DNA from: Alphaproteobacteria bacterium
GTDB taxonomy: Bacteria > Pseudomonadota > Alphaproteobacteria > UBA9219 > RGZA01
Assembly: GCA_010031785.1 (NCBI GenBank)
Contig: RGZA01000001.1
Coordinates: 1 to 48,392 of the forward strand
Direction of reading: 5' to 3'
Length of the DNA stretch: 48,392 nucleotides
Shown here one piece after another: positions 26,477-44,493 of this stretch (position 1 is the stretch's first letter; each line of letters starts with the position of its first letter). Under the pieces are notes generated by a model. That model worked only from the letters and a program-made list of their open reading frames with translations, was not told the origin of the DNA and did not search any database. Both the position numbers and the translations under genes were made by a program.

Positions 26477-26478
26477 CT

Positions 26479-28304: not shown

Positions 28305-28423
28305 AAGTTAGACTTTAATAATTTTATTTTTTGTACCCATTAGCCGCGTTTAGGTTCAGAAAATACCTCTCAATTGTCCATTAGGATGCTCTTAGTTTCA
28401 ACAGCAACTAAGGAGATTCCAAG

Positions 28424-28642
28424 ATGTCTAAACGCTTTATCCGTCTAAAAGAAGTGATCCAAATTACCGGCCTTGCGCGGTCAACCATATACGCGGCAAT
28501 CAAAGATGGAAGCTTTCCCTCCCAGATCAAGTTAACCCAGCGTGCCATTGGGTGGTCAGAGGAGCAGGTTTTCGAATGGGTTGGAAGCCGTCTTCCCAAA
28601 AAACATGAAAACGGCTCACAGCGTACAATTACCAAGCCATAG
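28424..28642 (+). CDS. alpA: AlpA-family transcriptional regulator / excisionase-like HTH protein
   Basis: 72 aa. The segment FIRLKEVIQITGLARSTIYAAIKDGSFPSQIKLTQRAIGWSEEQVFEWV matches the AlpA/Phage_AlpA pattern. An AAGGAG RBS lies upstream. Confidence 0.88.
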   Translation: MSKRFIRLKEVIQITGLARSTIYAAIKDGSFPSQIKLTQRAIGWSEEQVFEWVGSRLPKKHENGSQRTITKP

Positions 28643-28650
28643 GTGAACTT

Positions 28651-29193
28651 GTGGCAAGTAGGGGCAAAACCACACTTCCAAATGGTCGCAGCAGGAATCC
28701 TGATGGACGATATTTTCTTCTTCATGATTACATACTGCGATCCAAAGCCTATTTAGCCTTGTCCTGTGGAGCAAGATCCCTGTTAATTGAATTTATGAAC
28801 CTTCACCGACACTATAAAAATAAAGACGGCAAACTCATAGATAACAATGGAAAGCTCTTTCTTTCAGTAAGAGATGCGAGTGCAAGACTTGACTGCTCTA
28901 ACAACTCTACGAGAAAATATATGCAGGAGTTACTGGACTGGGGATTTCTCAAAATTGTCATAAAGGGGAGCTTTTCACTAAAGACCCCACATGCATCAAC
29001 ATTCATTTTAACTTGTCATCCCTATAAAGGCTCAGCACCAACGAAAGAGTTTGCTAAGCATGGCTTTCAAGAAATAAAGAAAAAAAATCAACGGTATCAA
29101 GATTTGAATGACACGGTATCAAATAATGATCTCATGTATGGCTATGAGATGGGTACGGTATCAAAAAGTGATACTGTACCCCCCAATACTTAA
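28651..29193 (+). CDS. hypothetical protein, possibly a winged-helix DNA-binding or replication-initiator-like island protein
   Basis: 180 aa with a GTG start. The segment LSCGARSLLIEFMNLH...LFLSVRDASARLDCSNNSTRKYMQELLDWGFLKIV looks wHTH-like. The 3' end of the gene and the downstream spacer contain the iteron cluster. Confidence 0.5.
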   Translation: MASRGKTTLPNGRSRNPDGRYFLLHDYILRSKAYLALSCGARSLLIEFMNLHRHYKNKDGKLIDNNGKLFLSVRDASARLDCSNNSTRKYMQELLDWGFLKIVIKGSFSLKTPHASTFILTCHPYKGSAPTKEFAKHGFQEIKKKNQRYQDLNDTVSNNDLMYGYEMGTVSKSDTVPPNT

Positions 29194-29219
29194 GACGGAG
29201 CAGTATCAAAAAATGATAC
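29091..29219. repeat. iteron-like cluster of four copies of ACGGTATCAA, two of them extended to the palindrome GTATCA-N5/6-TGATAC
   Basis: GTATCA occurs at 29094, 29116, 29158 and 29203. The perfect palindromes are GTATCAAAAAGTGATAC (29158-29174) and GTATCAAAAAATGATAC (29203-29219). Spacings are 22, 42 and 45 bp. Confidence 0.7.
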
Positions 29220-29322
29220 ACATATATTACCATCAGTTGTTTGTGGGCATCACGGATTACCAAGAACGCGCCGCGATGATGAACGATAATAAGCTGGCAT
29301 TTATAGATATGGTGGGGTGTGT

Positions 29323-29342
29323 GGTAATCAGTGGATATTACC
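29323..29342. promoter_or_regulatory. inverted repeat GGTAAT-N8-ATTACC upstream of ORF 29389, possibly an operator
   Basis: Read directly from the sequence. An additional ATTACC sits at 29256-29261. Confidence 0.3.
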
Positions 29343-29388
29343 GAATGCGGTGATAAATTTTTCAAATTCTCAAAATTAAGGGGGCTGA

Positions 29389-29790
29389 ATGTCACGAAAA
29401 ATCAAAGAACGTCAAACACAGGCGATAGCATTGCTATCTGGCGGGGTAAGCTGCACCAGCGTTGCCGCCAGCCTGAAGGTGACAAGAGAAACTATTTCAC
29501 GCTGGAAGAACGAGCCGCATTTCAGGGCAGAATTGAACGCCGCCACCGAAGATGCGCGGGAAACACTGCGAAGCCGATTGCTTGGCATGGCTGAAAAAGC
29601 CTTGCAAGTTATTGAGGCGGATTTGAGCGCAGACCAACCAAGCGATAAACGCAGCCGCACAGCCATCAAGATTCTTGAACTAGCAGCCAATGGGAAAATT
29701 GGCTTGCCAGAAGAACCATTGATCACAGACCAATGCACCCTTCAAGCCATAAAGCGGGAAGAAAAAAGCAAACAGGGCTGGATATTTTAA
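29389..29790 (+). CDS. hypothetical HTH-domain protein
   Basis: 133 aa. The N-terminus, RQTQAIALLSGGVSCTSVAASLKVTRETISRWKNEP, resembles a resolvase or terminase-small-type HTH. A GGGGG RBS-like motif lies upstream. Confidence 0.5.
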   Translation: MSRKIKERQTQAIALLSGGVSCTSVAASLKVTRETISRWKNEPHFRAELNAATEDARETLRSRLLGMAEKALQVIEADLSADQPSDKRSRTAIKILELAANGKIGLPEEPLITDQCTLQAIKREEKSKQGWIF

Positions 29791-29996
29791 TTAACAATTG
29801 GTTTTTGGATATTGCACCAATCCCGCCAAGCATGTTGCCGCGACTGTCCCCCATACTGATTTGGCTGCAAAAATCCTTGAAATGCACGCAATTTTGAAAG
29901 GCATAAAACCATTATCGCAATAGGCCATAAATGTTGATAATAAAGAAAGTATACACCCGCCGATTCATTGTTAGCTTCTAATAAGGTTTCCTTTGC

Positions 29997-32900
29997 ATGA
30001 CTACCATCCACGATCTATTAAATCAATTTCGTGAAGCCGCAACTTCAAATCGGGATTTAGGTGATAAGTTTGAAAGGTTGATCGCTAATTATCTGGTTAC
30101 TGATCCGCTCTATAGCGACAAGTATAGTGATGTGTGGCTGTGGGGTGAATGGCCTGACCGTGGTAACAAGCCTGATACAGGAATTGATCTTGTCGCTAAG
30201 GAGCGTGGCACGGGGGACTATTGTGCTATTCAATGCAAATTTTATGACCCCAACTATAATTTACAAAAGGGCGATATAGACTCTTTCTTTACCGCATCGG
30301 GTAAAGCCCCATTCACGAGCCGGATGATTGTTTCTACCACCGATAAGTGGAGCAATCATGCAGAGGAAGCACTTAGAAATCAAAAAACACCTGTGCAGCG
30401 TTTGCGTGTGCAGGATTTGGCGGATAGCCCCATAGATTGGGGAAAATTTAGCTTAAAAAATCCAAAAGATATTAAACTAAAACCCAAGAAAAAGCTGCGT
30501 GATCATCAAAAAACTGCACTCGCCAAAGTAGCAGAAGGGCTAAAAATTGCTGATCGTGGCAAGCTAATCATGGCTTGTGGTACGGGCAAAACATTTACAG
30601 CTTTGAAGATTGCTGAGCACATGGTTCCCGCCAAAGGGTGCGTGCTGTTTCTTGTGCCTTCAATTTCACTTTTATCCCAAACTTTGCGGGAATGGACGGC
30701 AGAGGCGGATGTGAAGTTGCATCCTTTTGCCGTTTGCTCAGATGCCCAAGTAGGTAAGCGTTCAGAAAATGAAGATATTAGCACTCATGATCTTCCATTC
30801 CCCGCGACCACTGACACCAAAAAATTGGTTGCTCAGGTTGAATTGTTCACCGTCAAAAAAGAATTGGTCGTTATTTTTTCAACCTATCAATCTATTAAAG
30901 TTGTCGCGGATGCTCAAAAGAAAGGCTTGCCAGATTTTGATCTAATTATTTGTGACGAAGCCCACCGCACAACAGGCGTAACGCTTGAAGGAGAAGATGA
31001 ATCCCACTTTGTTAAAGTCCATGATCAATCCTACATTAAAGGTACAAAACGCCTTTATATGACTGCCACCCCGCGTATTTTCAGCGATGGCACAAAGACC
31101 CAAGCTAAAGATAGCGATGCAACCCTGTGCTCAATGGATGATGAAAATCTCTATGGCAAGGAATTGCACAGGCTTGGTTTTTCAGAAGCTGTAAGCAAAG
31201 GCTTATTGTCTGATTATAAAGTTATGGTACTTGCGGTTGATGAAAAATACGTCAGCAAAACATTTCAAAAACAAATTGCCGATGAAAATAACGAAATAAA
31301 ATTAGAAGATGCTGTTAAAATTATGGGTTGTTGGAATGGCCTGTCTAAACGCATGGGCAGAGATTTAAGCGGCAATCCATTGGAGGCTGATGCAAGCCCT
31401 ATGCGTAGGGCAGTAGCTTTCTCACGATCAATTAAAGATTCAAAACGGCTTACTGAGCTTTTTTCGCAAGTCGTGGATGAATATCGTAAAAAGCATCAAG
31501 AGGAAGAAAACACCCTTGTTTGTGAAGTTGACCATGTTGATGGTACTTTTAATGCACTTGTACGCAATAAAAGGCTCGATTGGCTAAAAGCTGAAACGTC
31601 ACCAAATACTTGCCGGATTTTATCAAACGCCCGTTGCTTATCCGAAGGTGTGGATGTTCCTGCGCTTGATGCGGTGATGTTCCTAAACCCGCGCAATTCG
31701 ATTGTAGATGTGGTGCAGTCGGTGGGGCGTGTGATGCGTAAAGCTGATGGGAAAAAATATGGCTATGTAATTCTTCCAATTGGCATCCCAGCAGATATGA
31801 CACCGGAAGAAGCCTTAAAGGATAATCAGAAATACAAGGTTGTCTGGCAGGTGCTTCAAGCCCTTCGTGCCCACGATGATCGGTTTAATGCCACAGTTAA
31901 TCAGATTGATTTGAATAAAGCCCGCCCTGAAAATATCCAAGTGATTGGTGTGGGCGGTGATGTTGAGGGTGAGGGCGCAAGTGAAAATGGCGCGGATAGT
32001 AAACCAAAAAACACCCAGCATGTTTTTGCCTTTCCTAACATTGAAGAATGGCGCGATGCAATTTATGCCAAAATTGTCGTTAAATGCGGGGATCGCCGTT
32101 ATTGGGAAGATTGGGCAAAAGATGTTGCCCAGATTGCCGAACGCCACATCACCCGTGTAAAAGCATTGCTGGAAAGTTCTGATCAACAACACCGCAAGGC
32201 ATTTGATGAATTTTTACAGGGTTTACGAGATAATTTAAACCCAAGCATTAGCCAAGATGATGCGATTGAAATGCTATCCCAGCATTTGATTACCAAACCA
32301 GTATTTGATGCCCTTTTTGAAGGGTATGAATTTACAAAGCAAAACCCCGTTTCCATCACCATGCAAAAAATGCTTGATGTATTGGAGGATCAGGCATTTG
32401 ATAAAGAAACCGAGAAGCTTGAAAAGTTTTATGACAGCGTAAAACAGCGTGTAAGCGGTATTGATAGCGCGGCAGGTAAGCAAAATGTTATTAAGGAGCT
32501 TTATGATAAGTTCTTCCGTACTGCTTTCCCGCGCATGGCTGAACGCCTTGGCATTGTTTATACGCCTGTGGAAGTGGTTGATTTTATAATTCGCAGTGCG
32601 GACGATGCCTTGCGCCAAGAATTTGGCGTGGGCTTAACAGATAAAGATGTTCATATCCTTGACCCATTCACGGGCACGGGTACATTCATTGTACGTTTGC
32701 TGCAAAACGGCCTAATTGATCCCGCTGATTTAGCGCGAAAATACCAAAGCGAATTACACGCCAATGAAATTCTATTGCTGGCTTATTATATTGCCGCGAT
32801 TAACATTGAGGAAACCTATCACGGGCTTTCTGGCGGTAAGTATAAACCGTTTGATGGCATCGTGCTGACCGATACTTTCCAAATGGCTGAAAGTGGCGGG

Positions 32901-34787
32901 GCGTTACATGATAAAATGTTTCCAGAAAATAATAAACGCGTGAAACGACAAAAAGAAAGCCCCATTCGTGTTATTATGGGCAATCCACCGTACTCAGTCG
33001 GGCAAACAAGTGAGAATGATGCCAACAAAAATTTAAAATATACTTTTTTGGATAGCAGAATAAGAGATACTTATGCTGTTCATTCAACAGCAACAAATAA
33101 AAACAGTCTTTATGATTCCTATATCCGCTCAATTCGTTGGGCGAGTGACCGCATAACAGATAAAGGCATCATTTGCTTTGTCAGTAACGGGTCATTTATC
33201 GATAACAATTCGATGGATGGTTTACGCAAATGTTTGGTGGATGAATTTGCATCGATTTATTGTTTTAATTTGCGCGGTAATGCTCGGACTTCTGGCGAGC
33301 AAAGGCGTATGGAAAAAGGCAATGTTTTTGGTGAGGGGTCTCGAACGCCAATTGCAATTACTTTGCTGATCAAAAACATAGAAAAGAAAGGTAAAACTAA
33401 GCTTTTCTACCATGATATTGGTGATTATTTGAGCCGTGAAGAAAAGCTAAAAATCGTTTCTGATTTTGGCAGTACAAAGAAAATTGACTGGCAAAAACTT
33501 ACACCAAACGACAGCCATGACTGGATTAATCAGCGTGACCCAGCGTTTGATAAGTTTATTGCAATCGGCGATAAAGAAAATGAACATGAAGCTGTCATTT
33601 TTGATACGTATTCTAGTGGTGTGAAAACAAACCGTGATACGTGGGCGTATAATTTCTCTGATAGAAATTTGACAGCTAACATGAAGGGTATGATCGATTT
33701 TTACAATCAACAAACTGAAAGTTTTGAGAAAGACAGAAAAGGGAAAAATTTCAAATCAACCGATGAAAGGAAGCAAATCGTTGAAAATTTTGTGGACACT
33801 GACCCCACGAAAATTAGCTGGTCTCGTGGCCTTAAGGAAGACCTGAGCCGTTTTGTAAAACACAGCTTTTCTAAAAGCTCCGTTTTTCAAAGCGTATACA
33901 GGCCTTTTTGCAAACAGTGGGCTTATTTTAATAAAGATTTTAATGATATGATTTATCAAATGCCAAGGTTTTTTCCTGAAAATGGCATAAGCAATTTAGC
34001 TATCTGTATGACAGGGGTGGGAGCGAGTAAAGAGTTCTCTGCATTGATTGCAAATGTTTTGCCCAACTTACATTTTCATGATACGGGGCAATCCTTTCCA
34101 CTTTTTAGCTATGAAAAGTCAGTGCCCACAAATCAAATTTCTATGCTGGCGGATGCCAATGATTACCGCAAAAAATCTAATATATCTGATGCAATTTTGA
34201 TAAAATTCAGGGATGCTTATGATGGTGCGATTAGTAAGGAAGATATTTTCTATTATGTTTATGGCATCTTGCACTCACCTGAATATAAAACGCGTTTTTC
34301 TTCTGACCTTAAAAAAATGTTGCCACGTATTCCGTTGGCAAAAGATTTTTGGGTATTTAGTAAAGCAGGGCGCGAGCTTGCCAAATGGCATTTAAACTAT
34401 GAAACGATTGAGCCTTATAAGCTGACTGAGCACGCGGCAAAGCTAACGCTTAATCCAAAAACAGATTACCAAGTCAGCAAAATGACATTTGGTAAGAAGG
34501 ATGGCGCGGTGGATAAAACCACCATCATTTACAACAGCCTTATTACCCTTACGGGCATCCCGCTAGAAGCCTATGAGTATGTAGTGAATGGCAAGCCTGC
34601 CCTTGAATGGATAATTGAGCGTTATCAATTCACTCGTGATAAAGACAGCCAGATTATCAATGACCCTAACGATTGGTCGGATGATCCGCGTTACATCATT
34701 GACCTTGTAAAACGCATTGTGCGCGTAAGCATTGAAACGATGAAAATTGTTGATGCCTTGCCGCCATTAAACGAACGAAAAGATTGA
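29997..34787 (+). CDS. type ISP restriction-modification enzyme (single-polypeptide nuclease-helicase-methyltransferase-TRD, LlaGI/LlaBIII-like)
   Basis: 1596 aa. It has an Mrr-like nuclease (GIDLVAKE...YCAIQCKFY), an SF2 motor (MACGTGKTFTAL, IICDEAHRTTG, LSEGVDVPALD), a gamma-class N6A methyltransferase (ILDPFTGTGTFIV, VIMGNPPYSVGQ) and a long C-terminal target-recognition region. Confidence 0.85.
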   Translation: MTTIHDLLNQFREAATSNRDLGDKFERLIANYLVTDPLYSDKYSDVWLWGEWPDRGNKPDTGIDLVAKERGTGDYCAIQCKFYDPNYNLQKGDIDSFFTASGKAPFTSRMIVSTTDKWSNHAEEALRNQKTPVQRLRVQDLADSPIDWGKFSLKNPKDIKLKPKKKLRDHQKTALAKVAEGLKIADRGKLIMACGTGKTFTALKIAEHMVPAKGCVLFLVPSISLLSQTLREWTAEADVKLHPFAVCSDAQVGKRSENEDISTHDLPFPATTDTKKLVAQVELFTVKKELVVIFSTYQSIKVVADAQKKGLPDFDLIICDEAHRTTGVTLEGEDESHFVKVHDQSYIKGTKRLYMTATPRIFSDGTKTQAKDSDATLCSMDDENLYGKELHRLGFSEAVSKGLLSDYKVMVLAVDEKYVSKTFQKQIADENNEIKLEDAVKIMGCWNGLSKRMGRDLSGNPLEADASPMRRAVAFSRSIKDSKRLTELFSQVVDEYRKKHQEEENTLVCEVDHVDGTFNALVRNKRLDWLKAETSPNTCRILSNARCLSEGVDVPALDAVMFLNPRNSIVDVVQSVGRVMRKADGKKYGYVILPIGIPADMTPEEALKDNQKYKVVWQVLQALRAHDDRFNATVNQIDLNKARPENIQVIGVGGDVEGEGASENGADSKPKNTQHVFAFPNIEEWRDAIYAKIVVKCGDRRYWEDWAKDVAQIAERHITRVKALLESSDQQHRKAFDEFLQGLRDNLNPSISQDDAIEMLSQHLITKPVFDALFEGYEFTKQNPVSITMQKMLDVLEDQAFDKETEKLEKFYDSVKQRVSGIDSAAGKQNVIKELYDKFFRTAFPRMAERLGIVYTPVEVVDFIIRSADDALRQEFGVGLTDKDVHILDPFTGTGTFIVRLLQNGLIDPADLARKYQSELHANEILLLAYYIAAINIEETYHGLSGGKYKPFDGIVLTDTFQMAESGGALHDKMFPENNKRVKRQKESPIRVIMGNPPYSVGQTSENDANKNLKYTFLDSRIRDTYAVHSTATNKNSLYDSYIRSIRWASDRITDKGIICFVSNGSFIDNNSMDGLRKCLVDEFASIYCFNLRGNARTSGEQRRMEKGNVFGEGSRTPIAITLLIKNIEKKGKTKLFYHDIGDYLSREEKLKIVSDFGSTKKIDWQKLTPNDSHDWINQRDPAFDKFIAIGDKENEHEAVIFDTYSSGVKTNRDTWAYNFSDRNLTANMKGMIDFYNQQTESFEKDRKGKNFKSTDERKQIVENFVDTDPTKISWSRGLKEDLSRFVKHSFSKSSVFQSVYRPFCKQWAYFNKDFNDMIYQMPRFFPENGISNLAICMTGVGASKEFSALIANVLPNLHFHDTGQSFPLFSYEKSVPTNQISMLADANDYRKKSNISDAILIKFRDAYDGAISKEDIFYYVYGILHSPEYKTRFSSDLKKMLPRIPLAKDFWVFSKAGRELAKWHLNYETIEPYKLTEHAAKLTLNPKTDYQVSKMTFGKKDGAVDKTTIIYNSLITLTGIPLEAYEYVVNGKPALEWIIERYQFTRDKDSQIINDPNDWSDDPRYIIDLVKRIVRVSIETMKIVDALPPLNERKD

Positions 34788-34793
34788 AAAATC

Positions 34794-36245
34794 ATGAGTA
34801 ACATATCGGATTATATGGAGGACGGTGATGAATCTGATCTTCTTCAAAATGCGATTGATTCAGTCCAATTGGGAATTGAAGATTTTAAAAATGACGATCC
34901 AAAACGTATTTTATCAGCTTTTCGTAATCTTCATGCTGGCGTGTTGCTTTTATGTAAAGAAGTATTGCTGCGCTTATGTCCTAAAGATTCAAAAGAGGTG
35001 CACATAAAAGCAAAACAACAAGCCATAAAAGATTCTGATGGCAATATAATTTTTGTTGGTGTCGGTGATAATACAGTAACTGAGCATCAAATTATTGATA
35101 GATTTAAGAGCCTTGGAATTAAAACTGATCTATCCAAATTAAATGCACTCACTAAAATTAGAAATGACATTGAGCATTATTATTCACAAAATCTATCAGA
35201 AATTCAACCAAGGCGTGGTGGCGCAAAACTATTTAAAAATCTAAAGCGGGTAATCATTGATGAAATCTCAATGGTACGTGCTGATTTGTTAGATGCCGTT
35301 GATCATGCGCTGCAAATAAACAGGAAAGATGCTCGTCCATTCGGTGGTGTGCAAATAATTTTAGTGGGGGACTTCCTACAACTGCCACCCGTTGTAAGAG
35401 GTGATGAAGAAGAAATTCTAAGTAGCATGGGATATGAAACCCCGTTTGCCTTTAGTGCAAAATGCTTACAGAAAAATAAAGTTGTTACCATTGAGCTTTC
35501 AAAAGTTCACCGTCAAGATGATCCAGAATATATACGCTTGTTAGGCAATATACGATCAGGAGATGATTTAGAAGAAACTGTAAAAGCCTTTAATAATACA
35601 TGTTTTGGACAACATAAACGGGATGCCGCCCCCGTTATTCTGACAGGAACAAACGCTATTGCTGAAAAGTATAATCAGCGTGGGCTGAAAAGCCTTCCAA
35701 GCCAAGATGTGCTGTATGAAGGCATAATAAGTGGCGAGTTTAATCTTGATAAAGATAAGCTTCCTACGCCTGAGCTTCTAAACCTTAAAGTCGGTGCTCG
35801 AATAATGATGGTAAAAAACGACAAAGGTAAAAAGTGGGTCAATGGCTCATTGGGTGAGGTGGTGCGGCTTGGGCAGGATCGTATTTGGGTAAAACTTGAT
35901 GATAAAGACGGAGAGCATGAGGTAGCCAAAGCAGCTTGGGAAAACATTCGCTATGAATGGGATGATGAAAAACAAAGCATTGAAGCCAAAGTAGTGGGCA
36001 GCTATTCACAAATTCCCGTTATTCCTGCTTGGGCACTGACTATTCACAAGGCGCAAGGCTTAACGCTTGAAAATGTTCGTGTGGATTTGGCTACAGGCGC
36101 GTTTGCTTCTGGGCAGGCCTATGTTGCTCTATCAAGGGCACGCTCACTGGAAGGGCTATCTTTTGCCACACCATTGCGTGTTACTGATGCCATTGTTGAC
36201 AGGCGTCTTATTCAAAGTGAGCATAGCTTCAAACAAATCGATTAG
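34794..36245 (+). CDS. fusion ORF: N-terminal HEPN/DUF4145-like segment joined to a Pif1/RecD-family helicase that starts at the Walker B motif (no Walker A)
   Basis: 483 aa, starting 7 nt after the type ISP stop. Roughly aa 1-140 end in KIRNDIEHYY, an Rx4H motif. From about aa 150 the ORF is Pif1-like (VIIDEISMVRADLLD, GGVQIILVGDFLQLPPV, VHRQDD, WALTIHKAQGLTLE, GQAYVALSRARSLEGL). No GxxxxGK[ST] motif occurs anywhere. Confidence 0.6.
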   Translation: MSNISDYMEDGDESDLLQNAIDSVQLGIEDFKNDDPKRILSAFRNLHAGVLLLCKEVLLRLCPKDSKEVHIKAKQQAIKDSDGNIIFVGVGDNTVTEHQIIDRFKSLGIKTDLSKLNALTKIRNDIEHYYSQNLSEIQPRRGGAKLFKNLKRVIIDEISMVRADLLDAVDHALQINRKDARPFGGVQIILVGDFLQLPPVVRGDEEEILSSMGYETPFAFSAKCLQKNKVVTIELSKVHRQDDPEYIRLLGNIRSGDDLEETVKAFNNTCFGQHKRDAAPVILTGTNAIAEKYNQRGLKSLPSQDVLYEGIISGEFNLDKDKLPTPELLNLKVGARIMMVKNDKGKKWVNGSLGEVVRLGQDRIWVKLDDKDGEHEVAKAAWENIRYEWDDEKQSIEAKVVGSYSQIPVIPAWALTIHKAQGLTLENVRVDLATGAFASGQAYVALSRARSLEGLSFATPLRVTDAIVDRRLIQSEHSFKQID

Positions 36246-36715: not shown

Positions 36716-38170
36716 ATGTTTGAGCAAGTCTTCAAAAATATCGATGATGTGCTGCACAAGGATGCAGGCTGCACCAGCGAGCTGGATTATGCTGAGCAAA
36801 CCTCATGGATTTTATTCCTGAAATATCTCGACGACTTGGAACGCGAGCGGGCGATGGAAGCCGAGCTTGTCGGCAAGCCATACGAATATATCATTGATGC
36901 GCCATACCGCTGGGAATCATGGGCAGCACCCAAAGCGACCGATGGCACATTCGATCACAACAAGGCATTGACAGGCGACGACCTGCGCGAATTTGTGGAT
37001 ACCAAGCTGTTCCCCTACCTCAAAGGCTTCAAACAAAAAGCGGATAGTCCCGATACCATCGAATATAAAATCGGTGAGATATTCGGCGAAATCCGCAACA
37101 AGGTGCAAAGCGGCTTCACCCTGCGCGATGTGCTGGAACGGGTGGACGAACTGCGCTTCCGCTCGCAGAAGGAAAAGCACGAACTCTCGCACCTGTATGA
37201 AACTCGCATAAAAAACATGGGCAATGCAGGGCGTAATGGCGGCGAGTATTACACTCCGCGCCCGCTTATTCGCGCCATGATTCAGGTGACGAAACCAAAA
37301 ATCGGTGAGCGGATTTATGATGGCGCGGTTGGCTCCGCAGGCTTCTTGTGTGAAGCCTATGAATACCTGCGCGCCAGCAAAGAACTGACCACCAGCGATC
37401 TGCAAACGCTGCAAACCAAAACCTTCTATGGTAAGGAAAAGAAAAGCCTCGCCTATGTCATCGCCATCATGAACATGATTTTGCATGGTATCGAGACGCC
37501 GAACATCCTGCACACCAACACGCTGGCCGAGAATATCAGCGATATTCAGGAAAAAGACCGCTTCGATGTCATCCTCGCCAATCCACCGTTTGGTGGGAAG
37601 GAACGCAAGGAGGTGCAGCAAAATTTCCCCATTAAAACGGGTGAAACCGCTTCCCTGTTTTTGCAACACTTCATCAAGTCACTAAAGGCGGGTGGCCGCG
37701 CGGCGATTGTTATTAAAAACACCTTCCTGAGCAATACAGACAACGCCTCCGTCGCTCTGCGTAAGGAGCTGCTGACAAGCTGTAACCTACACACGGTGTT
37801 GGATTGTCCTTCGGGAACCTTCCAAGGTGCAGGCGTTAAAACGGTGGTGCTTTTTTTTGAAAAAGGTTCGGCCACGCGCAAGGTGTGGTTTTACCAACTC
37901 AAGCCAGACCGCAACATGGGCAAAACCAACCCATTAAACGATGAGGACGTGAAGGACTTTGTAAAGCTGCAAGCCAGCTTCGCCAATTCCGATAATTCAT
38001 GGACGGTCGATGCGGCGACGATTGACCCCACCACCTATGACCTTTCGACGAAGAACCCGAATAAGGCCGAGGAAGTTGCAGCCCGCAGCCCGCAAGCCAT
38101 CATCGACGAAGTATTGTCGCTGGATAACGAAAGCGCGGTCATTATGACGCGCATCAAAGCAATGCTATAA
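36716..38170 (+). CDS. hsdM: type I restriction-modification system methyltransferase subunit
   Basis: 484 aa with an HsdM_N-type N-terminus, motif I (IYDGAVGSAGFL) and motif IV (ILANPPFGGKE). Confidence 0.95.
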   Translation: MFEQVFKNIDDVLHKDAGCTSELDYAEQTSWILFLKYLDDLERERAMEAELVGKPYEYIIDAPYRWESWAAPKATDGTFDHNKALTGDDLREFVDTKLFPYLKGFKQKADSPDTIEYKIGEIFGEIRNKVQSGFTLRDVLERVDELRFRSQKEKHELSHLYETRIKNMGNAGRNGGEYYTPRPLIRAMIQVTKPKIGERIYDGAVGSAGFLCEAYEYLRASKELTTSDLQTLQTKTFYGKEKKSLAYVIAIMNMILHGIETPNILHTNTLAENISDIQEKDRFDVILANPPFGGKERKEVQQNFPIKTGETASLFLQHFIKSLKAGGRAAIVIKNTFLSNTDNASVALRKELLTSCNLHTVLDCPSGTFQGAGVKTVVLFFEKGSATRKVWFYQLKPDRNMGKTNPLNDEDVKDFVKLQASFANSDNSWTVDAATIDPTTYDLSTKNPNKAEEVAARSPQAIIDEVLSLDNESAVIMTRIKAML

Positions 38171-38184: not shown

Positions 38185-38601
38185 ATGCAAGATATTCGCT
38201 GGAAGCAACGTTTTAATAACTATATCAAAGCCCTACAAAATTTGACAGAAGCTGTTGCATTGTCGCAAGAACGACCACTTTCAAAATTGGAACAGCAGGG
38301 ATTGATTCAAAGTTTTGAGTTCACGCATGAACTCGCGTGGAACGTACTGAAAGACTATTTGGAACATAAAGGAGCCGAGGGCTTAATTGGCTCAAAAGAT
38401 GCATCACGCGAAGCTTTTAAGAACGACCTGATTGAAGACGGCCTAACATGGATGGACATGATAAAATCGCGAAATCTCACCACTCATACCTACAACCCCG
38501 AAGTGGCCGAAAACATTACCATTGATGTGGTGGAGCGGTTTTACCCAGCCTTTGCAAGTATGGCTAAAAAATTCACCCCCATGTACGATGCGCAGGATTA
38601 G
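38185..38601 (+). CDS. HEPN-domain protein, HI0074 / nucleotidyltransferase-substrate-binding family (toxin of a HEPN/MNT pair)
   Basis: 138 aa. The start MQDIRWKQRFNNYIKAL and the segment FEFTHELAWNVLKDYLEHKG are typical of the family. The Rx4H motif is SRNLTTHTY. Confidence 0.85.
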   Translation: MQDIRWKQRFNNYIKALQNLTEAVALSQERPLSKLEQQGLIQSFEFTHELAWNVLKDYLEHKGAEGLIGSKDASREAFKNDLIEDGLTWMDMIKSRNLTTHTYNPEVAENITIDVVERFYPAFASMAKKFTPMYDAQD

Positions 38602-38604: not shown

Positions 38605-40122
38605 ATGCAATACGGCCTTAGCAGCGATACCATTCAACGAATCAGCGGCGTGTTTTCGACATTCCCTGCCGTAGAAAAGGCGGTGCTGTATGGTTCGCGT
38701 GCCAAAGGTAATTATAAAACGGGGTCTGATATTGACCTGACCCTATACGGCGAGCAGCTCACCCCTGAGCTGTTGGGAGATATATCCGAAGCATTGGATA
38801 ATTTACTGCTGCCCTATACCATCGACCTGTCGCTTTTTGATGAGCTTGAACACGCCAAACTACGTGAACATATCGAACGTGTAGGTGTATCATTTTATAT
38901 GCGTGCGGAAACGAATACTCCGCGCGGTAGAAGCTGGCGGATGAAAAGATTAGGGGATATTTGTAAAACAGGGGCTGGCGGAACGCCGCTGACCTCAAAA
39001 GAAGAGTATTACGAACAAGGCACAATACCGTGGTTGCAGAGCGGCGAGGTCAATCAGGGTGAGATTTTTGCTGCTAAAAACTTTATCACACCGCTGGGAC
39101 TCGAAAACTCATCCGCCAAACTTTTCCCGAAGAACACGGTTTTAATCGCAATGTATGGGGCGAACGCTGGCGAAGCAGGCATACTTCGCTTTGAAGCATC
39201 CACTAATCAGGCGGTCTGTGGCATATTGCCCAGTGACTATTTTGAGCCAAAGTTCCTTTATTACCTTTTTCTTTCAAAATACGATGAGTTAGCGTCGCAG
39301 GCCGTGGGCAATGCTCAGCCAAACATCTCACAGGCAAAAATTAAAGATACGCTCGTGCCACTAGTAGATATTACCGAACAGCAGCGGATTGTGGCGGTGT
39401 TGGATGATGCGTTTGCGGGTATTGCGACCGCGACCGAGAACGCCAAAAAGAACCTACAAAACGCCCGCGAGCTGTTTGAAAGCCACCTGCAATCCATCTT
39501 CACAACCAAAGGCAATGGGTGGGAGGAGAAGAAGCTAGGCGATGTCGCACACCATTCTCTCGGAAAAATGCTTGATAAGGCTAAGAACAAAGGTGTCGCT
39601 AAAAAATATCTTCGCAACATCAATGTGCGCTGGCTCAACTGTGATTTGTCTGACCTTTTGGAAATGAGATTTCTGCCGGAAGAGGAAGAAAAATATACTG
39701 CAATCAAAGGAGATGTGCTGATTTGTGAAGGTGGCTATCCTGGTCGCGCAGCGATTTGGCAAGAAGACTATGCAATTCACTTCCAGAAAGCCCTTCACAG
39801 GGTGCGGTTCCGTGAGCCAAAATATAATAAGTACTTTGTATATTACTTATACTATCTAGAAAAATCGGGTTTGTTGAAGGCTCATTGTGCAGGTGCTGGC
39901 ATTCAACATTTTACTGGTCAGGCACTGCACAAACTTCCTTTAGTTATGCCTCCTCTGGAACAAATAGATGACATTGTTGCCCGCGTGGATACTCTCTCCA
40001 CCGAAACCAAGCGCCTTGAAGCCATTTACCAGCAAAAGCTGGAGATTCTGGCGGCATTGAAACAAGCTATTCTGCAAAAAGCATTTGCGGGTGAACTGCG
40101 CATGGATAGGTTGGCAGCATGA
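38605..40122 (+). CDS. hsdS: minimal nucleotidyltransferase (MNT, HI0073-like) fused in frame to the type I R-M specificity subunit HsdS
   Basis: 505-aa ORF. Aa 1-98 are MNT (VLYGSRAKGNYKTGSDIDLTL..., EHIERVGVSFY). From M99 (ATG at 38899) it is a normal two-TRD HsdS (SWRMKRLGDICKTGAGGTPL..., with conserved helices QQRIVAVLDDAF and ...LKQAILQKAFAGEL). There is no stop codon between the two parts. Confidence 0.8.
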   Translation: MQYGLSSDTIQRISGVFSTFPAVEKAVLYGSRAKGNYKTGSDIDLTLYGEQLTPELLGDISEALDNLLLPYTIDLSLFDELEHAKLREHIERVGVSFYMRAETNTPRGRSWRMKRLGDICKTGAGGTPLTSKEEYYEQGTIPWLQSGEVNQGEIFAAKNFITPLGLENSSAKLFPKNTVLIAMYGANAGEAGILRFEASTNQAVCGILPSDYFEPKFLYYLFLSKYDELASQAVGNAQPNISQAKIKDTLVPLVDITEQQRIVAVLDDAFAGIATATENAKKNLQNARELFESHLQSIFTTKGNGWEEKKLGDVAHHSLGKMLDKAKNKGVAKKYLRNINVRWLNCDLSDLLEMRFLPEEEEKYTAIKGDVLICEGGYPGRAAIWQEDYAIHFQKALHRVRFREPKYNKYFVYYLYYLEKSGLLKAHCAGAGIQHFTGQALHKLPLVMPPLEQIDDIVARVDTLSTETKRLEAIYQQKLEILAALKQAILQKAFAGELRMDRLAA

Positions 40123-41048
40123 GTATAAAAAGTTACTACCGCATCATGCTAGGCCAGAAGAGCGTTCATGCTGATGAGTGCTTTGCGGGCAACTTTATTG
40201 GAACAGATTTTGGTATTCATCAAAATCTTGCTCATAAATTGCCAGAGGAATGGCGCGCATTTAACAAAGAGTTCATCCCCATTTACCTTGCAGGTCATCC
40301 CGACAAAACCAAGATTAGTGCTGGTCTTGCTTGCGGTGCGCTATGGACAGTTTCTAAGGGCATACAGCAAGGGGATGTTGTGTTGTGTCCCGATGGTATG
40401 GGCAAATATCGTGTCGGTGAAGTTAACGGCGGATATTATTACGAAGAGGGAAAAATTCTGCCACACCGTCGGCCTGTCACATGGCTGAATGTTGTGATTG
40501 ACCGCGCAGAAATGAGCGAGGCGTTGCGTAACTCCACAGGCTCTATCGGCACAGCAAGCAACATCACCAAGCACAGTGATGAACTTGTTAAACTTATTGG
40601 CGGCGTATCTGCGCCTACGCTTATTTCGACGGACGCAACTGTTGAAGACCCATCTTCATTCGCGCTTGAAGCACATTTGGAAGAGTTTCTTGTTAAAAAT
40701 TGGGCGCATACTGAACTCGGTAAAGATTATGATATTTACGAGGAAGACGGTGTTAAGGCGCAGCAATACCAAACCGATACGGGGCCACTCGATATTTTGG
40801 CTATTAGCAAAGACAAAAAACGTCTTTTGGTTGTGGAGTTAAAGAAAGGCCGCGCCAGTGATGCAGTCGTTGGACAGACAATGCGCTACATGAGTTTTGT
40901 ACAGGACGAATTGGCGGATGATGGGCAGACGGTGCTTGGTGCAATTATCGCACATGAAGATGATCAAAAAATCCGCCGTGCATTATCAATGACGAATAAC
41001 ATCGTCTTCTATCGGTATAAAGTCAGCTTTAATTTGGTGAAGACATAA
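40119..41048 (+). CDS. hypothetical two-domain protein: unassigned N-terminal domain plus a C-terminal PD-(D/E)xK (NucS/DUF91-like) nuclease domain
   Basis: 309 aa. Its start overlaps the hsdS stop as ATGA, and a single nucleotide separates its stop from the hsdR start. The nuclease motif is TGPLDILAISKDKKRLLVVELKKGRASDAVVGQTMRYM. Confidence 0.7.
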   Translation: MSIKSYYRIMLGQKSVHADECFAGNFIGTDFGIHQNLAHKLPEEWRAFNKEFIPIYLAGHPDKTKISAGLACGALWTVSKGIQQGDVVLCPDGMGKYRVGEVNGGYYYEEGKILPHRRPVTWLNVVIDRAEMSEALRNSTGSIGTASNITKHSDELVKLIGGVSAPTLISTDATVEDPSSFALEAHLEEFLVKNWAHTELGKDYDIYEEDGVKAQQYQTDTGPLDILAISKDKKRLLVVELKKGRASDAVVGQTMRYMSFVQDELADDGQTVLGAIIAHEDDQKIRRALSMTNNIVFYRYKVSFNLVKT

Positions 41049-41049
41049 T

Positions 41050-43377
41050 ATGAATGAAGCTGAAACCCGCGCCGAGTTGATTGACCCCGCATTGAAAGCG
41101 GCGGGGTGGGGCGTGGTCGAGGGCAGCCGCATCCAGCGGGAATACCATATTACCCAAGGGCGGCTGGAAGGTGCTGGCAAGCGCAGTAAGCCCATGATTG
41201 CGGATTATGTGCTGATGTATCGCAACACTAAGTTGGCGGTGATTGAGGCCAAGAAGCGCGACCTGCCCGTGAGCGATGGCGCAGCCCAAGCCAAAACCTA
41301 TGCCGAGAAGCTGAGCATCCGCACCGCCTATGCCACCAATGGCGCAGCGGTTTACCGCATTGACATGGAAACTGGAGAGGAGGGCGAGCTTACTTGCTAT
41401 CCCACACCTAACGAGTTATGGAACATCACCTTCGCCAAAGAGAATGCATGGCGCGACCGTTTTGCTGCTGTTCCATATGAAGATAGCGGTGGGCAAAAAC
41501 CTGCGCGGTATTATCAAGACAATGCAGTAAGCAAAACATTAGAAGCAATCGCCGATGGCAAAGACCGTGTGTTGCTGACGCTAGCAACAGGTACAGGCAA
41601 AACCTTTATTGCCTTTCAGTTGGCGTGGAAGCTATTTCAAAGCCGTTGGAATCTAAGTCGTGAGCCAGTGCGCCGTCCGCGCATTCTTTTTCTAGCCGAC
41701 CGCAACATCCTTGCCGACCAAGCCTATAACTCTTTCTCCGCCTTCTCCGAAGATGCACTTGTGCGGATTGCACCTGACGAAATTCGTAAAAAAGGTCGTG
41801 TGCCGAAGAACGGCAACATCTTCTTTACCATTTTTCAAACTTTCATGAGTGGCACGGATGCCGAGGGTAAGCCTGCGCCAAACTTTGGTGACTATCCCCC
41901 TGACTTCTTCGATTTCATTATCATTGACGAGTGCCATCGCGGTGGTGCGAATGATGAGGGAAACTGGCGTGGGATTTTGGAGTATTTTTCACCCGCTGTG
42001 CAGCTTGGCCTCACCGCCACGCCCAAGCGCAAGGGCAACGTCGATACCTATCGCTATTTCGGCGACCCAGTTTACATCTACTCCCTTAAAGAGGGCATCA
42101 ATGACGGATTCCTTACTCCATTCAAGGTCAAGCAAATCGCCACCACGCTGGATGATTACGTTTACACACGCGATGACGAAATTATCGAGGGCGACTTAGA
42201 AGAAGGCAAGCGTTATACCGAAAGTGACTTTAACCGTATCATTGAGATTAAAGAGCGCGAGCGATACCGCGTGAAACTGTTCATGGATGCCATCGATCAG
42301 CGCGAGAAGACGATTGTGTTCTGCGCCACGCAAGACCACGCCGCTGCTGTGCGTGACCTTATCAACCAAACGAAGACTAGCCCCAATCCTAACTACTGCG
42401 AGCGCGTGACTGCCCGCGATGGTGCGCTGGGCGAACAGCACCTCAAAGCGTTTCAGGATAATGAAAAGACTATCCCGACCATTCTCACCACCTCGCAAAA
42501 ACTATCGACTGGGGTGGATGCCCGCAATGTTCGCAACATCGTGTTGATGCGTCCCGTAAACTCAATGATTGAGTTCAAACAAATTATCGGGCGCGGCACG
42601 CGCTTGTTTGATGGCAAGGATTACTTCACCATCTACGATTTCGTGAGGGCTTACGAGCATTTCAGCGACCCAGAGTGGGATGGTGAGCCAGTCGAGCCAA
42701 CCCCAACCACCAAGAAGGGTAGCGAAGGCACGGAAGCGCCCAAGCCAGACGAAGGCTTAGAGGGCAGTGAAGAACCAAAGCAACGCCCAAAGAAAATAAA
42801 AATCAAATTGGCGGATGGTAAGGAGCGCACCATTCAAAGCATGATGGCCACCACCTTCTGGGGTGCAGATGGCAGACCGTTGTCAGCAGCCGAATTCTTA
42901 CAAAATCTATTCGGTGAGTTGCCTGAGCTGTTCAAGGATGAAGACGAACTGCGCGCAATATGGAGTAAACCAGATACACGCAAGGCGCTGCTCGACAAGC
43001 TATCGGAAAAAGGGTTCGGCACAGAGCAGCTTACTGAAATCAAACGGATGATTGATGCGGAGAAAAGCGACCTGTTCGATGTGTTGGCTTACGTCGCCTT
43101 TGCGCTCAGCCCCATCACACGGCAGGATAGAGTTGCCAAGCAGAAGAGCCAAATTTTTGCCCATTACGAGGACAAGCAGCGCGAGTTTCTTGATTTTGTC
43201 CTGTCGCAGTATGTGAAGGAAGGCGAGAAAGAACTCGACCAAGCCAAACTGCCGATACTGTTAGAGCTAAAATATCAGGCTGTGGGTGATGCCACCGAAC
43301 GACTAGGCAGCATTGCCTCCATCCGTGGCGTGTTCATGGGCTTCCAGCAGTATTTGTATGTGCGTGACGTCATTTAA
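41050..43377 (+). CDS. hsdR: type I restriction enzyme endonuclease/translocase subunit
   Basis: 775 aa with an HsdR N-terminus (MNEAETRAELIDPALKAAGW), an SF2 motor (LATGTGKTFIAF, IIIDECHRG, QIIGRGTRL) and an EcoEI_R_C-like tail (SDLFDVLAYVAF). Confidence 0.95.
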   Translation: MNEAETRAELIDPALKAAGWGVVEGSRIQREYHITQGRLEGAGKRSKPMIADYVLMYRNTKLAVIEAKKRDLPVSDGAAQAKTYAEKLSIRTAYATNGAAVYRIDMETGEEGELTCYPTPNELWNITFAKENAWRDRFAAVPYEDSGGQKPARYYQDNAVSKTLEAIADGKDRVLLTLATGTGKTFIAFQLAWKLFQSRWNLSREPVRRPRILFLADRNILADQAYNSFSAFSEDALVRIAPDEIRKKGRVPKNGNIFFTIFQTFMSGTDAEGKPAPNFGDYPPDFFDFIIIDECHRGGANDEGNWRGILEYFSPAVQLGLTATPKRKGNVDTYRYFGDPVYIYSLKEGINDGFLTPFKVKQIATTLDDYVYTRDDEIIEGDLEEGKRYTESDFNRIIEIKERERYRVKLFMDAIDQREKTIVFCATQDHAAAVRDLINQTKTSPNPNYCERVTARDGALGEQHLKAFQDNEKTIPTILTTSQKLSTGVDARNVRNIVLMRPVNSMIEFKQIIGRGTRLFDGKDYFTIYDFVRAYEHFSDPEWDGEPVEPTPTTKKGSEGTEAPKPDEGLEGSEEPKQRPKKIKIKLADGKERTIQSMMATTFWGADGRPLSAAEFLQNLFGELPELFKDEDELRAIWSKPDTRKALLDKLSEKGFGTEQLTEIKRMIDAEKSDLFDVLAYVAFALSPITRQDRVAKQKSQIFAHYEDKQREFLDFVLSQYVKEGEKELDQAKLPILLELKYQAVGDATERLGSIASIRGVFMGFQQYLYVRDVI

Positions 43378-43591
43378 AGGAACCCAACTCTTCCTTCTGC
43401 TGCCGCATCGCCTGATTTATATTCTTAATAAATGCTCGTATCTCGCGCCATTTGCCACCTTTGTTGGCATTACGCGCTGCACGGATTTTACCTTCATTCG
43501 TGCGTGGGCCGGTGGATCGCGTCCATGGTTGCCATCGCCGGATCGCCTCGGCCTGTTGCGCCCGTCGTTCCGATGTCCATTCCTTGCTCAT
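43370..43591 (-). CDS. small conserved mobile-element hypothetical protein
   Basis: 73 aa and basic (WTSERRAQQAEAIRRWQPWTRSTGPRTNEGKIRAARNANKGG). It overlaps the 3' end of the preceding ORF in another frame, so it may be a separate gene or a frameshifted continuation. Confidence 0.4.
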   Translation of the reverse strand: MSKEWTSERRAQQAEAIRRWQPWTRSTGPRTNEGKIRAARNANKGGKWREIRAFIKNINQAMRQQKEELGSFK

Positions 43592-44297
43592 GTTGATCCT
43601 CCAATAGTTCGTTTTGCACAGAATCTGAATTTCCCGCGCGCGCGTGCGTATTGCTATAAAAACCCCCGTCTGACTTGTTCACGGTATTGTTGACCTGTTG
43701 CGGCCCGTTGGCGATATTGGCTTGCTTTGCAAAAACCACAGGCGGGTTTTTAATCGCCGCCAATGTTTCCAGCGTCGCGCGGCATTGCCCCTGTGCTTTT
43801 AAGGCAAGGCGCATATAACGGTCTGCGGCATCAAGATATTCGCCCATATTGAGTTGTGCGCGGCGTGCCAGTGAAGCGAATATAGAGTCTAATGCAAGTG
43901 CTTGGCTGTAGCCACCATCGGCGCGGATATCGACGCCAGCAGCAACACGTCCTGCGCTGTTTTTTAATCCATCATGATGTTTAAAAAGATAATGCCAGCC
44001 GCCAGAGCGTGTGCCGTGAACCCGTGTTTTTGGAATCTTTGTACCATGTTCAGCAAGCCACTTGTCACCACCGTGACGGGGATCGATATCAAGCACATCA
44101 AGTCCTGACAGTGCGCCTGTTGGTACGCCAATTAATGACGCAGGGTATTTTGTGAAAAGCTGTTTGACGGATTTCCCATCACAAGTTGCATCCTTGAATC
44201 CATGGGGGCATGCTGGTTTTTTATCCTCACGGACGGGGAAAACTGGAAGCCCATGCGCAGCTAAGGCTAGGGCTTTGTCAAATATTCTGTCACTCAT
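43494..44297 (-). CDS. bifunctional primase-polymerase (PrimPol) N-terminal domain, truncated and joined to unrelated sequence
   Basis: The PrimPol pattern (HGLPVFPVREDKKPACPHGFKDAT..., GLDVLDIDPRHGG, THGTRSGGWHYLF, GVDIRADGGY) breaks off before the expected PPS motif. The remaining about 140 aa are unrelated. I place the start at the ATG at 44297; the track ORF extends to 44357. Confidence 0.6.
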   Translation of the reverse strand: MSDRIFDKALALAAHGLPVFPVREDKKPACPHGFKDATCDGKSVKQLFTKYPASLIGVPTGALSGLDVLDIDPRHGGDKWLAEHGTKIPKTRVHGTRSGGWHYLFKHHDGLKNSAGRVAAGVDIRADGGYSQALALDSIFASLARRAQLNMGEYLDAADRYMRLALKAQGQCRATLETLAAIKNPPVVFAKQANIANGPQQVNNTVNKSDGGFYSNTHARAGNSDSVQNELLEDQHEQGMDIGTTGATGRGDPAMATMDAIHRPTHE

Positions 44298-44493
44298 GGC
44301 TATCACCGCTTTCTTTGCGGTGGGTTTCGAGCCACTCCAAAACATCTTTCTTGGCAATCAGGCGGCGGCTGCCAACCTTAAATGATTTAAGCTCTTTGTT
44401 TTTTAGGGCTTCCCAGATAGTAGCGGCAGATAATCCCACCGCATGGGCAAGCGGCTTTACGCCATATGCCAATTTTTCATCACTTAACTGCAT
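44290..44493 (-). CDS. excisionase-family helix-turn-helix DNA-binding protein
   Basis: 67 aa. VKPLAHAVGLSAATIWEALKNKELKSFKVGSRRLIAKKDVLEWLE is an HTH_17/excisionase-like pattern. It overlaps the PrimPol start by 8 nt. Confidence 0.75.
   Translation of the reverse strand: MQLSDEKLAYGVKPLAHAVGLSAATIWEALKNKELKSFKVGSRRLIAKKDVLEWLETHRKESGDSHE

Follow-up and report, generated by a model that had tools for sequence, protein, structure and literature searches.

A 48,392-nucleotide stretch of contig RGZA01000001.1 (assembly GCA_010031785.1, Alphaproteobacteria bacterium, lineage UBA9219; hereafter the window) contains a type I restriction-modification (R-M) operon with an additional open reading frame (ORF) lodged between hsdS and hsdR (40119-41048, forward strand, 309 amino acids, aa). 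The encoded protein joins an N-terminal DUF8426 domain, predicted to adopt a PUA-superfamily fold, to a C-terminal NucS-like nuclease domain. The reading that we put first, with a confidence just short of even, is that it acts as a self-contained modification-dependent (type IV-like) endonuclease, co-expressed as a cassette in the type I R-M operon. The DUF8426 reader probably binds a modified base in incoming nucleic acid, the likely ligand being a phage DNA modification other than the N6-methyladenine (m6A) written by the resident HsdM, and a flexible linker would position the NucS-like domain (D225/E240/K242, Q253/Y257) to cut nearby. Co-transcription with hsdM-S-R, probably accompanied by translational coupling, would allow one operon to cover both unmodified DNA (through the type I enzyme) and modified DNA out of that enzyme's reach.

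The ORF with its junctions, the conserved residues, the predicted folds, the domain fusions and the neighbourhood counts are observations, whereas we infer ligand binding, the modified-DNA substrate, cleavage, expression coupling and a defence role. Fusions of PUA-like domains to nucleases have been shown experimentally to be modification-dependent (Lutz 2019, PMC6765204), and EVE/DCD readers located beside type I R-M genes (HsdRMS) were predicted to target modified DNA not made by the resident HsdM (Bell 2020, PMC7641849), a logic by which the reader should not recognize the base that the resident HsdM produces. The proposed arrangement also resembles that of an McrBC branch found in association with type I R-M (PMC11090510). 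Already on record are the gene family, the embedding and the status as a defence candidate; our additions are a fold for DUF8426, the finding of this domain on McrB and GmrSD scaffolds, and evidence for evolution independently of the Hsd partners. If the proposed reading is true, DUF8426 would be a new clade of modified-base readers deployed on at least three restriction scaffolds (NucS-like nuclease, McrBC and GmrSD), the PADLOC candidate system PDC-S02, to which the protein belongs, would be a type IV enzyme carried by type I operons to catch modified phage DNA, and the enzyme might provide a new reagent for detecting a DNA modification.

A predicted PUA-like reader domain

The N-terminal domain (aa 1-160; 40119-40598, forward strand) was modelled alone, from 64 aligned sequences, because fold searches with the whole model were dominated by the nuclease domain. 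The resulting model was of high predicted quality (predicted local distance difference test, pLDDT, 96; predicted template modelling score, pTM, 0.89). Foldseek searches of the PDB matched it to the YTH protein YTHDF2 (7r5w, E=3.7e-4) and to the EVE domain of the restriction enzyme VcaM4I (6yex, E=5.3e-4), with further matches to YTHDF1 and YTHDC1 and weaker ones to the EVE proteins 2ar1 (E=0.05) and 2eve (E=0.19). Template modelling (TM) scores were 0.41-0.50 throughout, with a probability of 1.00 for the top six matches. The order of strands and helices in the model fits the EVE pattern beta-alpha-beta-alpha-beta4 (as given by Bell et al. 2020, PMC7641849), with two extra helices.

Sequence searches did not place the domain. 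The local copy of Pfam, which did not include PF28530 (DUF8426), gave nothing at E<=10 for the window N-domain or for three distant homologues, and no EVE, YTH, SRA or ASCH match; a profile of 32 N-domains searched against PDB sequences returned a chance hit only, and PHROGs contained no match. Since the Pfam, PDB and PHROGs searches all failed, the domain was placed by fold comparison alone. On the basis of its predicted structure and of moderate TM scores, we take DUF8426 to be a clade of its own within the PUA superfamily, in which EVE, YTH, SRA and ASCH domains are readers of modified bases. A preliminary description of this DNA, made from the sequence alone, had tentatively taken this part of the protein for a new sensor domain and had suggested searching its fold separately from that of the nuclease. 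That search did place the domain, near YTH and EVE proteins, while placement by sequence failed, and the supposedly new sensor is Pfam DUF8426 with the predicted fold of a known class of modified-base readers.

A phage-metagenome protein in BFVD (A0A8S5NVT7, Myoviridae sp. ctEBR14, 336 aa) has the DUF8426 fold in common with the window protein (TM 0.75, E=2.9e-10). Searches for the target protein itself in INPHARED phage genomes (tblastn), and for the operon in plasmids (megablast), gave no match.

DUF8426 on other restriction scaffolds

The case for DUF8426 as a reader of nucleic acid, as opposed to a sensor of proteins, is made most strongly by its other partners. In a library clustered at 50% identity, the domain also occurs apart from the NucS-like nuclease (proteins and loci are cited here by our own P and L numbers). 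In P0212 it precedes AAA_5 and McrB_lid domains, thus replacing the DNA-reading N-domain of McrB, and the gene is followed by one for McrC, with no type I genes nearby. In P0224 it is fused to GmrSD_N, and the gene lies directly 3' of a type I hsdR, so that a second DUF8426 architecture is also associated with type I R-M. An HSDR_N nuclease is joined to DUF8426 in P0149, and HARE-HTH and RAMA domains are added to the whole two-domain protein in P0158; P0185, which pairs DUF8426 with a CBS domain, is the one exception seen to these restriction-type partners. The scaffolds McrB and GmrSD belong to type IV restriction and recognize nucleic acid directly, while the HSDR_N, HARE-HTH and RAMA partners are DNA modules associated with restriction.

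Individual loci illustrate these arrangements. The DUF8426-McrB homologue is followed by an overlapping McrC gene in L057 (3478-6649) and L058 (128-3299). In L062-L064 (for example L062, 911-6413), a 785-aa DUF8426 + GmrSD_N protein begins 13 nt after hsdR and is followed by a DUF6642 gene. L068 (735-2644) contains two tandem paralogous NucS_C genes, the first with a DUF8426 label and the second (P0211) lacking it, although P0211 is 37% identical to the window protein over its full length.

A NucS-like nuclease domain

The C-terminal domain (aa 179-309; 40653-41045, forward strand) is, by both sequence comparison and predicted fold, a NucS-like PD-(D/E)xK nuclease with intact catalytic residues. 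Pfam NucS_C matched it at 27.3 bits (cut-off 24), while YhcG_C and PDDEXK_4 fell below their cut-offs, and NucS structure 2vld was the sole sequence match in the PDB, aligned across D225...E240-x-K242...Q253...Y257. In the full-length AlphaFold model (mean pLDDT 88.4), a disordered linker at aa 165-178 (40611-40652, forward strand; pLDDT <50), where the alignment of relatives is variable and gap-rich, separates the nuclease from the reader. Foldseek searches with the whole model returned the NucS/EndoMS structures 2vld and 5gke (E~1e-6), with the Card1 and Can2 nuclease domains next in rank. Card1 and Can2 cut single-stranded RNA as well as DNA.

The catalytic core read from the sequence (40791-40889, forward strand; contained in the peptide GPLDILAISKDKKRLLVVELKKGRASDAVVGQTMRYM, aa 222-258) consists of D225, E240-x-K242 and G252-Q253-x3-Y257, and it aligns with the equivalent stretch of NucS. 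The preliminary description had recognized a D/E/K signature of the NucS/DUF91 type here, a call upheld by NucS_C, the 2vld alignment and Foldseek, but it had given the spacing between the first two acidic residues as x15, where the sequence reads D225-x14-E240-x-K242. The Pfam scan of the window protein gave no Mrr_N or Mrr_cat match at E<=0.01.

Resemblance to NucS does not extend to the protein as a whole. The NCBIfam equivalog models for NucS scored far below their cut-offs (NF003270, 32.2 bits versus 216; NF002876, 22.5 bits versus 252), aligning with the C-terminal domain alone, and none of the 50 best fold matches of the N-domain was NucS; we therefore rejected membership in NucS/EndoMS itself. 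That the gene is a housekeeping mismatch repair enzyme of the NucS/EndoMS type, or a decaying passenger without a defence role, is taken up below with the other alternatives.

Family membership and conservation

The window protein matches the PADLOC model PDLC04799, named PDC-S02, over nearly its full length (E=1.1e-151; aa 4-308 on profile positions 2-307 of 308), and a second PDC-S02 model, PDLC04824, at E=2e-149. Models carrying the PDC-S02 name are heterogeneous, some matching the N-domain alone and others the nuclease domain alone. Precomputed Pfam labels for the window protein (P0001) and its relatives assign PF28530 (DUF8426) to the N-terminal and PF01939 (NucS_C) to the C-terminal part, PF28530 being taken as labelled. 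RefSeq names plasmid relatives 'endonuclease NucS domain-containing protein', and JGI applies the generic labels 'restriction system protein' and 'Mrr-cat superfamily'.

The 145 PDC systems are phage-defence candidates that were chosen because their genes lie inside operons of BREX, DISARM or type I R-M systems (Payne, Hughes, Fineran and Jackson 2024, bioRxiv 10.1101/2024.01.29.577857), and PDC-S02 was among the most abundant candidate systems in a survey of defence in cold-seep genomes. The protein is thus neither unassigned nor undescribed, as had been claimed at first: its family was already listed as a candidate, and on the same embedding argument (10.1101/2024.01.29.577857). Our literature searches found no functional study of DUF8426/PF28530, PDC-S02 or the NucS domain-containing relatives, and the portions of the sources on PDC-S02 that were accessible contain no domain analysis or function for it.

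Homologues form at least 8000 clusters at 90% identity, and the 50%-identity library contains 2923 representatives at E<=1e-3 and 226 at E<=1e-30. Given this number of homologous clusters and the conserved catalytic residues, the ORF is, on comparative sequence evidence, a real gene and not a chance ORF. An alignment of 54 sequences, reaching down to 33% identity, showed E184, L187, W195, D225, L227, G252, Q253 and Y300 to be invariant, with E240, K242, Y257, G12, F48, D86, Y106, H116, R118 and W122 present in at least 90% of sequences. When 14 reader and catalytic residues were checked in 48 intact copies from different species, all were identical except for F48L in one copy and H116Q in L045; D225, E240, K242, Q253 and Y257 were identical in 48/48. 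The initial description of a two-domain protein with a PD-(D/E)xK C-domain is borne out by the NucS_C match, the predicted fold and this conservation.

We examined 55 loci with a close relative, one genome per species, with identities to the window protein of 38-93% (most of them 56-93%). Their hosts span Alphaproteobacteria, Planctomycetota, Verrucomicrobiota, Acidobacteriota, Nitrospira, Chloroflexota, Bacteroidota, Elusimicrobia and Clostridia, and include one Nanoarchaeota genome. One locus (L053, 9212-11545) contains a 777-aa ORF that combines fragments of HsdM and HsdR with nuclease-domain residues 183-291 (85% identity to the window copy); this ORF either arose by deletion or reflects an assembly error in a metagenome-assembled genome.

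Association with type I operons

Neighbourhoods of the 55 loci were searched with profiles built from the window Hsd proteins, with Pfam spot checks of unexplained neighbours. The census draws on the HsdS and HsdR profiles, first-pass HsdM matches and these spot checks, since the iterated HsdM profile drifted onto HsdR sequences. The gene lies exactly between hsdS and hsdR with no further gene in 17/55 loci (one degraded), between hsdS and hsdR with additional ORFs in the gap in 12/55, and at another position within a same-strand type I operon, or at its border, in 8/55, giving a total of 37/55 (67%) in type I operons. A further 3/55 copies lie 1-3 kb from a type I operon on the opposite strand, and 5/55 apparently solo copies have remnants of the hsdS 3' end or hsdR 5' end at their junctions (three detected by tblastn, two by eye), so that 45/55 (82%) are in or beside a type I operon or its remains. 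No type I trace was found at 9/55 loci, and the contig was too short to classify one (1/55). The preliminary description would have been contradicted by homologues lying mainly outside R-M loci, and these counts show the opposite.

The remnant-bearing copies (L003, L007, L009, L025 and L034) retain terminal hsdS codons on their upstream side, initial hsdR codons on their downstream side, or both, indicating that the gene outlived the type I operon of its origin; we therefore discarded the idea that the solo copies have been independent of type I systems throughout their history. Loci without a type I trace are mixed: two are near Schlafen-like helicase or DISARM-like genes, others are near genes for a serine/threonine kinase (L028), a 2-oxoacid dehydrogenase E1 (L045) or RF3 (L050), and some solo copies are next to MutS or DNA polymerase III alpha genes. 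More distant members (36-39% identity) follow hsdR-YgjP in a type I operon, and one occupies an island with an EcoRI-type methylase, a GmrSD-HNH protein and a KAP NTPase.

The hsdS-hsdR gap is a general landing and stacking site for unrelated cassettes. On an Acinetobacter plasmid the order is hsdM-hsdS-[target gene]-[Abi family gene]-hsdR, and in a Prosthecobacter-type operon (L069-L074, ~3600-7600 in each) the gap contains five genes, encoding PDDEXK_5, HNH, DUF8426-NucS_C, HTH + Peptidase_M78 and DUF3368 proteins; this stack was seen on six contigs that stand for at least 23 carrying the same protein.

Such a strong association, which extends across at least two type I families, could indicate that the protein is a type I accessory working on DNA, its reader marking or processing DNA together with HsdMSR without an interface specific to one Hsd family. 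Possible tasks are widening restriction to include modified DNA, sensing the methylation state of sites, or processing DNA at stalled translocating complexes. The type I association of the DUF8426-GmrSD_N fusion fits this idea, as does the reading of m6A, the type I mark, by YTH-like folds, and it was proposed earlier that an EVE protein next to HsdRMS lets the system restrict modified DNA (Bell 2020, PMC7641849). We nonetheless consider an accessory role unlikely: the protein has a complete nuclease of its own and would not need HsdR to cut, its solo copies are conserved, distant members reside in islands without a type I system (such as the one just described), and the same reader is mounted on an McrBC scaffold with no type I genes nearby.

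Relationship to the Hsd partners

The preliminary description had compared the gene to prrC, noting correctly that it occupies the slot between (MNT-)hsdS and hsdR in which prrC is found, and had proposed an effector guarded by the R-M complex and acting in abortive infection. Such a protein would be held latent by the type I enzyme, released when phage anti-restriction proteins (Ocr, ArdA) block that enzyme, and would then kill the cell or destroy DNA. Besides the position and its tight junctions, an embedding rate of 37/55 (45/55 with relics and neighbours) is nearer to that of PrrC, described as almost exclusively embedded (Payne et al., 10.1101/2024.01.29.577857), than to the situation of the PUA-nuclease enzymes (<6% near a DNA methyltransferase). 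The DUF8426-GmrSD_N fusion is likewise found directly after hsdR, and a representative of PDC-S02 that gave no protection when expressed alone behaved as expected of a protein that needs a partner.

The partners themselves argue otherwise. In L008 and L011-L013, the target protein is 78-81% identical to that of the window, but its HsdR and HsdM are only 21-27% identical over part of their length, belong to another size class (HsdM ~600-800 aa, HsdR ~1020-1060 aa) and differ in domain make-up, a combination that speaks against a co-evolved protein interface. Within the type I family of the window, conservation of the target protein equals or, more often, exceeds that of HsdR and HsdM. In the 13 copies that have no intact type I operon beside them, H116Q in L045 is the single change among the 14 checked residues, and a toxin needing an Hsd antidote is not expected to survive in this state: unguarded, it should decay or be lethal. 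Pfam, NCBIfam and PADLOC searches at E<=1 found no ATPase, PrrC or RloC match in the window protein and thus, in Pfam and PADLOC, none of the ATPase or regulatory domains of a PrrC-like effector. The N-domain has a predicted base-reader fold, is shared with McrB and GmrSD enzymes and is not a known protein-sensing module, and the slot also hosts many unrelated cassettes. The guard idea gains no positive support from our analysis, being weakened by divergent partners, conserved solo copies, a generic slot and the McrB/GmrSD fusions, and we regard a PrrC-like effector as distinctly unlikely. These comparisons lead us to favour a gene that evolves independently of its Hsd partners, as a self-contained cassette, although they are also compatible with a generic tie to type I restriction that needs no protein interface.

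Weighing a self-contained modification-dependent enzyme

Several points count against the self-contained enzyme proposed here. In the only published test of a PDC-S02 member, four candidates protected E. coli B against T4, T5 or T7, but the PDC-S02 representative (subfamily unspecified), produced on its own, was not one of them (10.1101/2024.09.26.614923). The known PUA-nuclease enzymes have a DNA methyltransferase within 3 kb in <6% of cases (Lutz 2019, PMC6765204), and the absence of a nearby methyltransferase that marks their neighbourhoods does not hold for our protein, which has hsdM in the same operon and 67% of its relatives in a type I operon. A type I methylase in the operon need not be cognate to the target nuclease, but embedding at this rate means that a purely autonomous enzyme leaves the type I association unexplained. 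Identities of 56-93% across distant phyla, including Nanoarchaeota, are unusually high for a defence gene. The similarity of the modelled domain to EVE and YTH folds is moderate (TM 0.41-0.50), with no link at the sequence level, and YTH domains read m6A, which is the type I mark, so that a DUF8426 domain reading m6A in DNA would predict self-toxicity.

Some of these difficulties would disappear if DUF8426 readers were functionally tied to type I restriction, either as a back-up effector triggered by the failure or inhibition of type I restriction, or as a reader of a conserved modified nucleic acid, possibly RNA. Such a tie would explain the 67-82% embedding, the DUF8426-GmrSD protein after hsdR and the high conservation across phyla, and it would amount to PrrC-like logic built from unrelated parts; we hold it to be distinctly unlikely.

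A more specific alternative is an RNA-directed effector, in which the PUA-like domain reads a conserved modified base of tRNA or rRNA and the nuclease cuts RNA, making the protein an analogue of PrrC with unrelated sequence. Modified RNA is a frequent ligand of YTH, EVE and PUA domains, the nuclease domain has similarity to those of Card1 and Can2 as well, the protein occupies the PrrC slot, and 56-93% identity from Alphaproteobacteria to Nanoarchaeota would fit a universal target. The closest relatives of the nuclease in both sequence and fold are nevertheless the DNA enzymes NucS/EndoMS, the partners of DUF8426 (McrB with McrC, GmrSD_N, HSDR_N, HARE-HTH + RAMA) are DNA-restriction modules, and nothing in our data points directly to RNA, all of which makes this alternative very unlikely.

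A housekeeping role in mismatch repair, as an enzyme of the NucS/EndoMS type, or a gene that is merely a decaying passenger is extremely improbable: the RefSeq name of the relatives, a NucS_C score just above the Pfam cut-off and the solo copies beside MutS or DNA polymerase III alpha genes would suit it, but the equivalog scores (32 and 22 bits versus cut-offs of 216 and 252) and fold matches tie the C-domain alone to NucS, the gene is patchily distributed, horizontally mobile and found in defence contexts (the window copy being on a tRNA-Ser/integrase island), and strong residue conservation argues against decay. Our estimates for the preferred reading and its rivals together leave part of the probability unassigned.

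The host operon and the surrounding island

The ORF coordinates and both junctions reported in the preliminary description were confirmed. The start codon overlaps the stop codon of the upstream MNT-HsdS ORF as ATGA (40119-40122, forward strand), and the stop codon (TAA, 41046-41048) is separated by one base from the hsdR start (ATG, 41050), forming a TAA-t-ATG junction (41046-41052, forward strand). An identical or near-identical upstream junction recurs in relatives from both type I families, as does a gap of 1-5 nt to the hsdR ATG in relatives, and translation of the ORF is probably coupled to that of the hsd genes. A scan for promoters and terminators inside the operon found nothing above shuffled controls.

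All genes of the operon are on the forward strand. It begins with hsdM (36716-38170; HsdM_N + N6_Mtase in Pfam) and ends with hsdR (41050-43377; HSDR_N, ResIII, Helicase_C and EcoEI_R_C). Between hsdM and the target gene lie a gene for a HEPN-type NTase_sub_bind protein of the HI0074 family (38185-38601; Pfam, NCBIfam), the first half of a second embedded cassette, and a 505-aa MNT-HsdS ORF (38605-40122), in which an MNT nucleotidyltransferase (aa 12-102) continues into HsdS (from ~aa 110) in the same frame with no stop codon. The upstream gene was thus rightly identified as containing HsdS, but it is not a plain hsdS, since a nucleotidyltransferase reads into it in frame. The usual HsdS start (MKRLGDICK) corresponds to an internal ATG at 38941, and in the relative locus L031 the MNT protein is encoded by a separate 111-aa ORF; the 505-aa ORF represents either a true MNT-HsdS fusion or an HsdS translated from the internal start. 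With HEPN and MNT sited between hsdM and hsdS, the operon contains two embedded cassettes and not one.

Upstream of the operon, a tRNA-Ser gene (26224-26313) precedes genes for a tyrosine integrase (26401-27690) and for a Type ISP restriction-modification enzyme of 1596 aa (29997-34787; Mrr_cat_2, ResIII, ISP_coupler, N6_Mtase and Type_ISP_C); a gene for a PIF1-like helicase (34794-36245) starts 7 nt after the latter. G+C content falls to 0.39-0.43 across 26-36 kb of the window, and these sequence features mark the region from 26224 to 36245 as a defence island that has integrated here. Its far end lies beyond the window, in which the tRNA 3' end has no second copy. Just past hsdR is a gene for a bifunctional primase/polymerase (Prim-Pol; 43494-44357, reverse strand), which fits a mobile element.

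Comparison with known systems

The closest counterpart on record is PDC-S02 itself, with the same full-length profile match and the same embedding in a type I R-M operon, although PDC-S02 is a candidate label and not a mechanism. In architecture, the protein is comparable to VcaM4I and TspA15I (EVE-HNH) and to YenY4I (PUA-DUF3427-PD-(D/E)xK), which likewise combine a reader and a C-terminal nuclease in one polypeptide without an ATPase (PMC6765204; PMC7897488), and VcaM4I was also among the top structural matches of the window N-domain. It differs from these enzymes in having a reader of a separate sequence family, DUF8426, and a nuclease of the NucS and not the HNH type; 67% of DUF8426-NucS_C relatives are in a type I operon, whereas <6% of the PUA-nuclease enzymes have a nearby methyltransferase (PMC6765204). 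The END nucleases (PMC12191111), which have another architecture with an inactive EndoIII domain as reader, were set aside.

With PrrC (EcoprrI, hsdM-hsdS-prrC-hsdR), the target gene shares its slot and a high rate of type I embedding, but there is no kinship in sequence or domains: the target protein lacks an ABC-type NTPase and instead has a DNA-type PD-(D/E)xK nuclease and a base-reader domain. With NucS/EndoMS it has in common the C-terminal PD-(D/E)xK domain, including D...ExK and QxxxY, for which 2vld and 5gke were the best matches, whereas its N-domain is predicted to be PUA-like and its context is a mobile defence island and not a repair locus.

Neighbouring type I and modification-dependent systems are familiar from the immigration control region of E. 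coli K-12, where hsdRMS adjoins mrr and mcrBC. The type IV systems McrBC and GmrSD are linked to our protein through the reader itself, as DUF8426 forms the N-domain of an McrB homologue encoded with McrC and of a GmrSD_N protein encoded beside hsdR. In the window, by contrast, this reader is joined to a small nuclease without an NTPase, and its gene is located inside the type I operon and not beside it.

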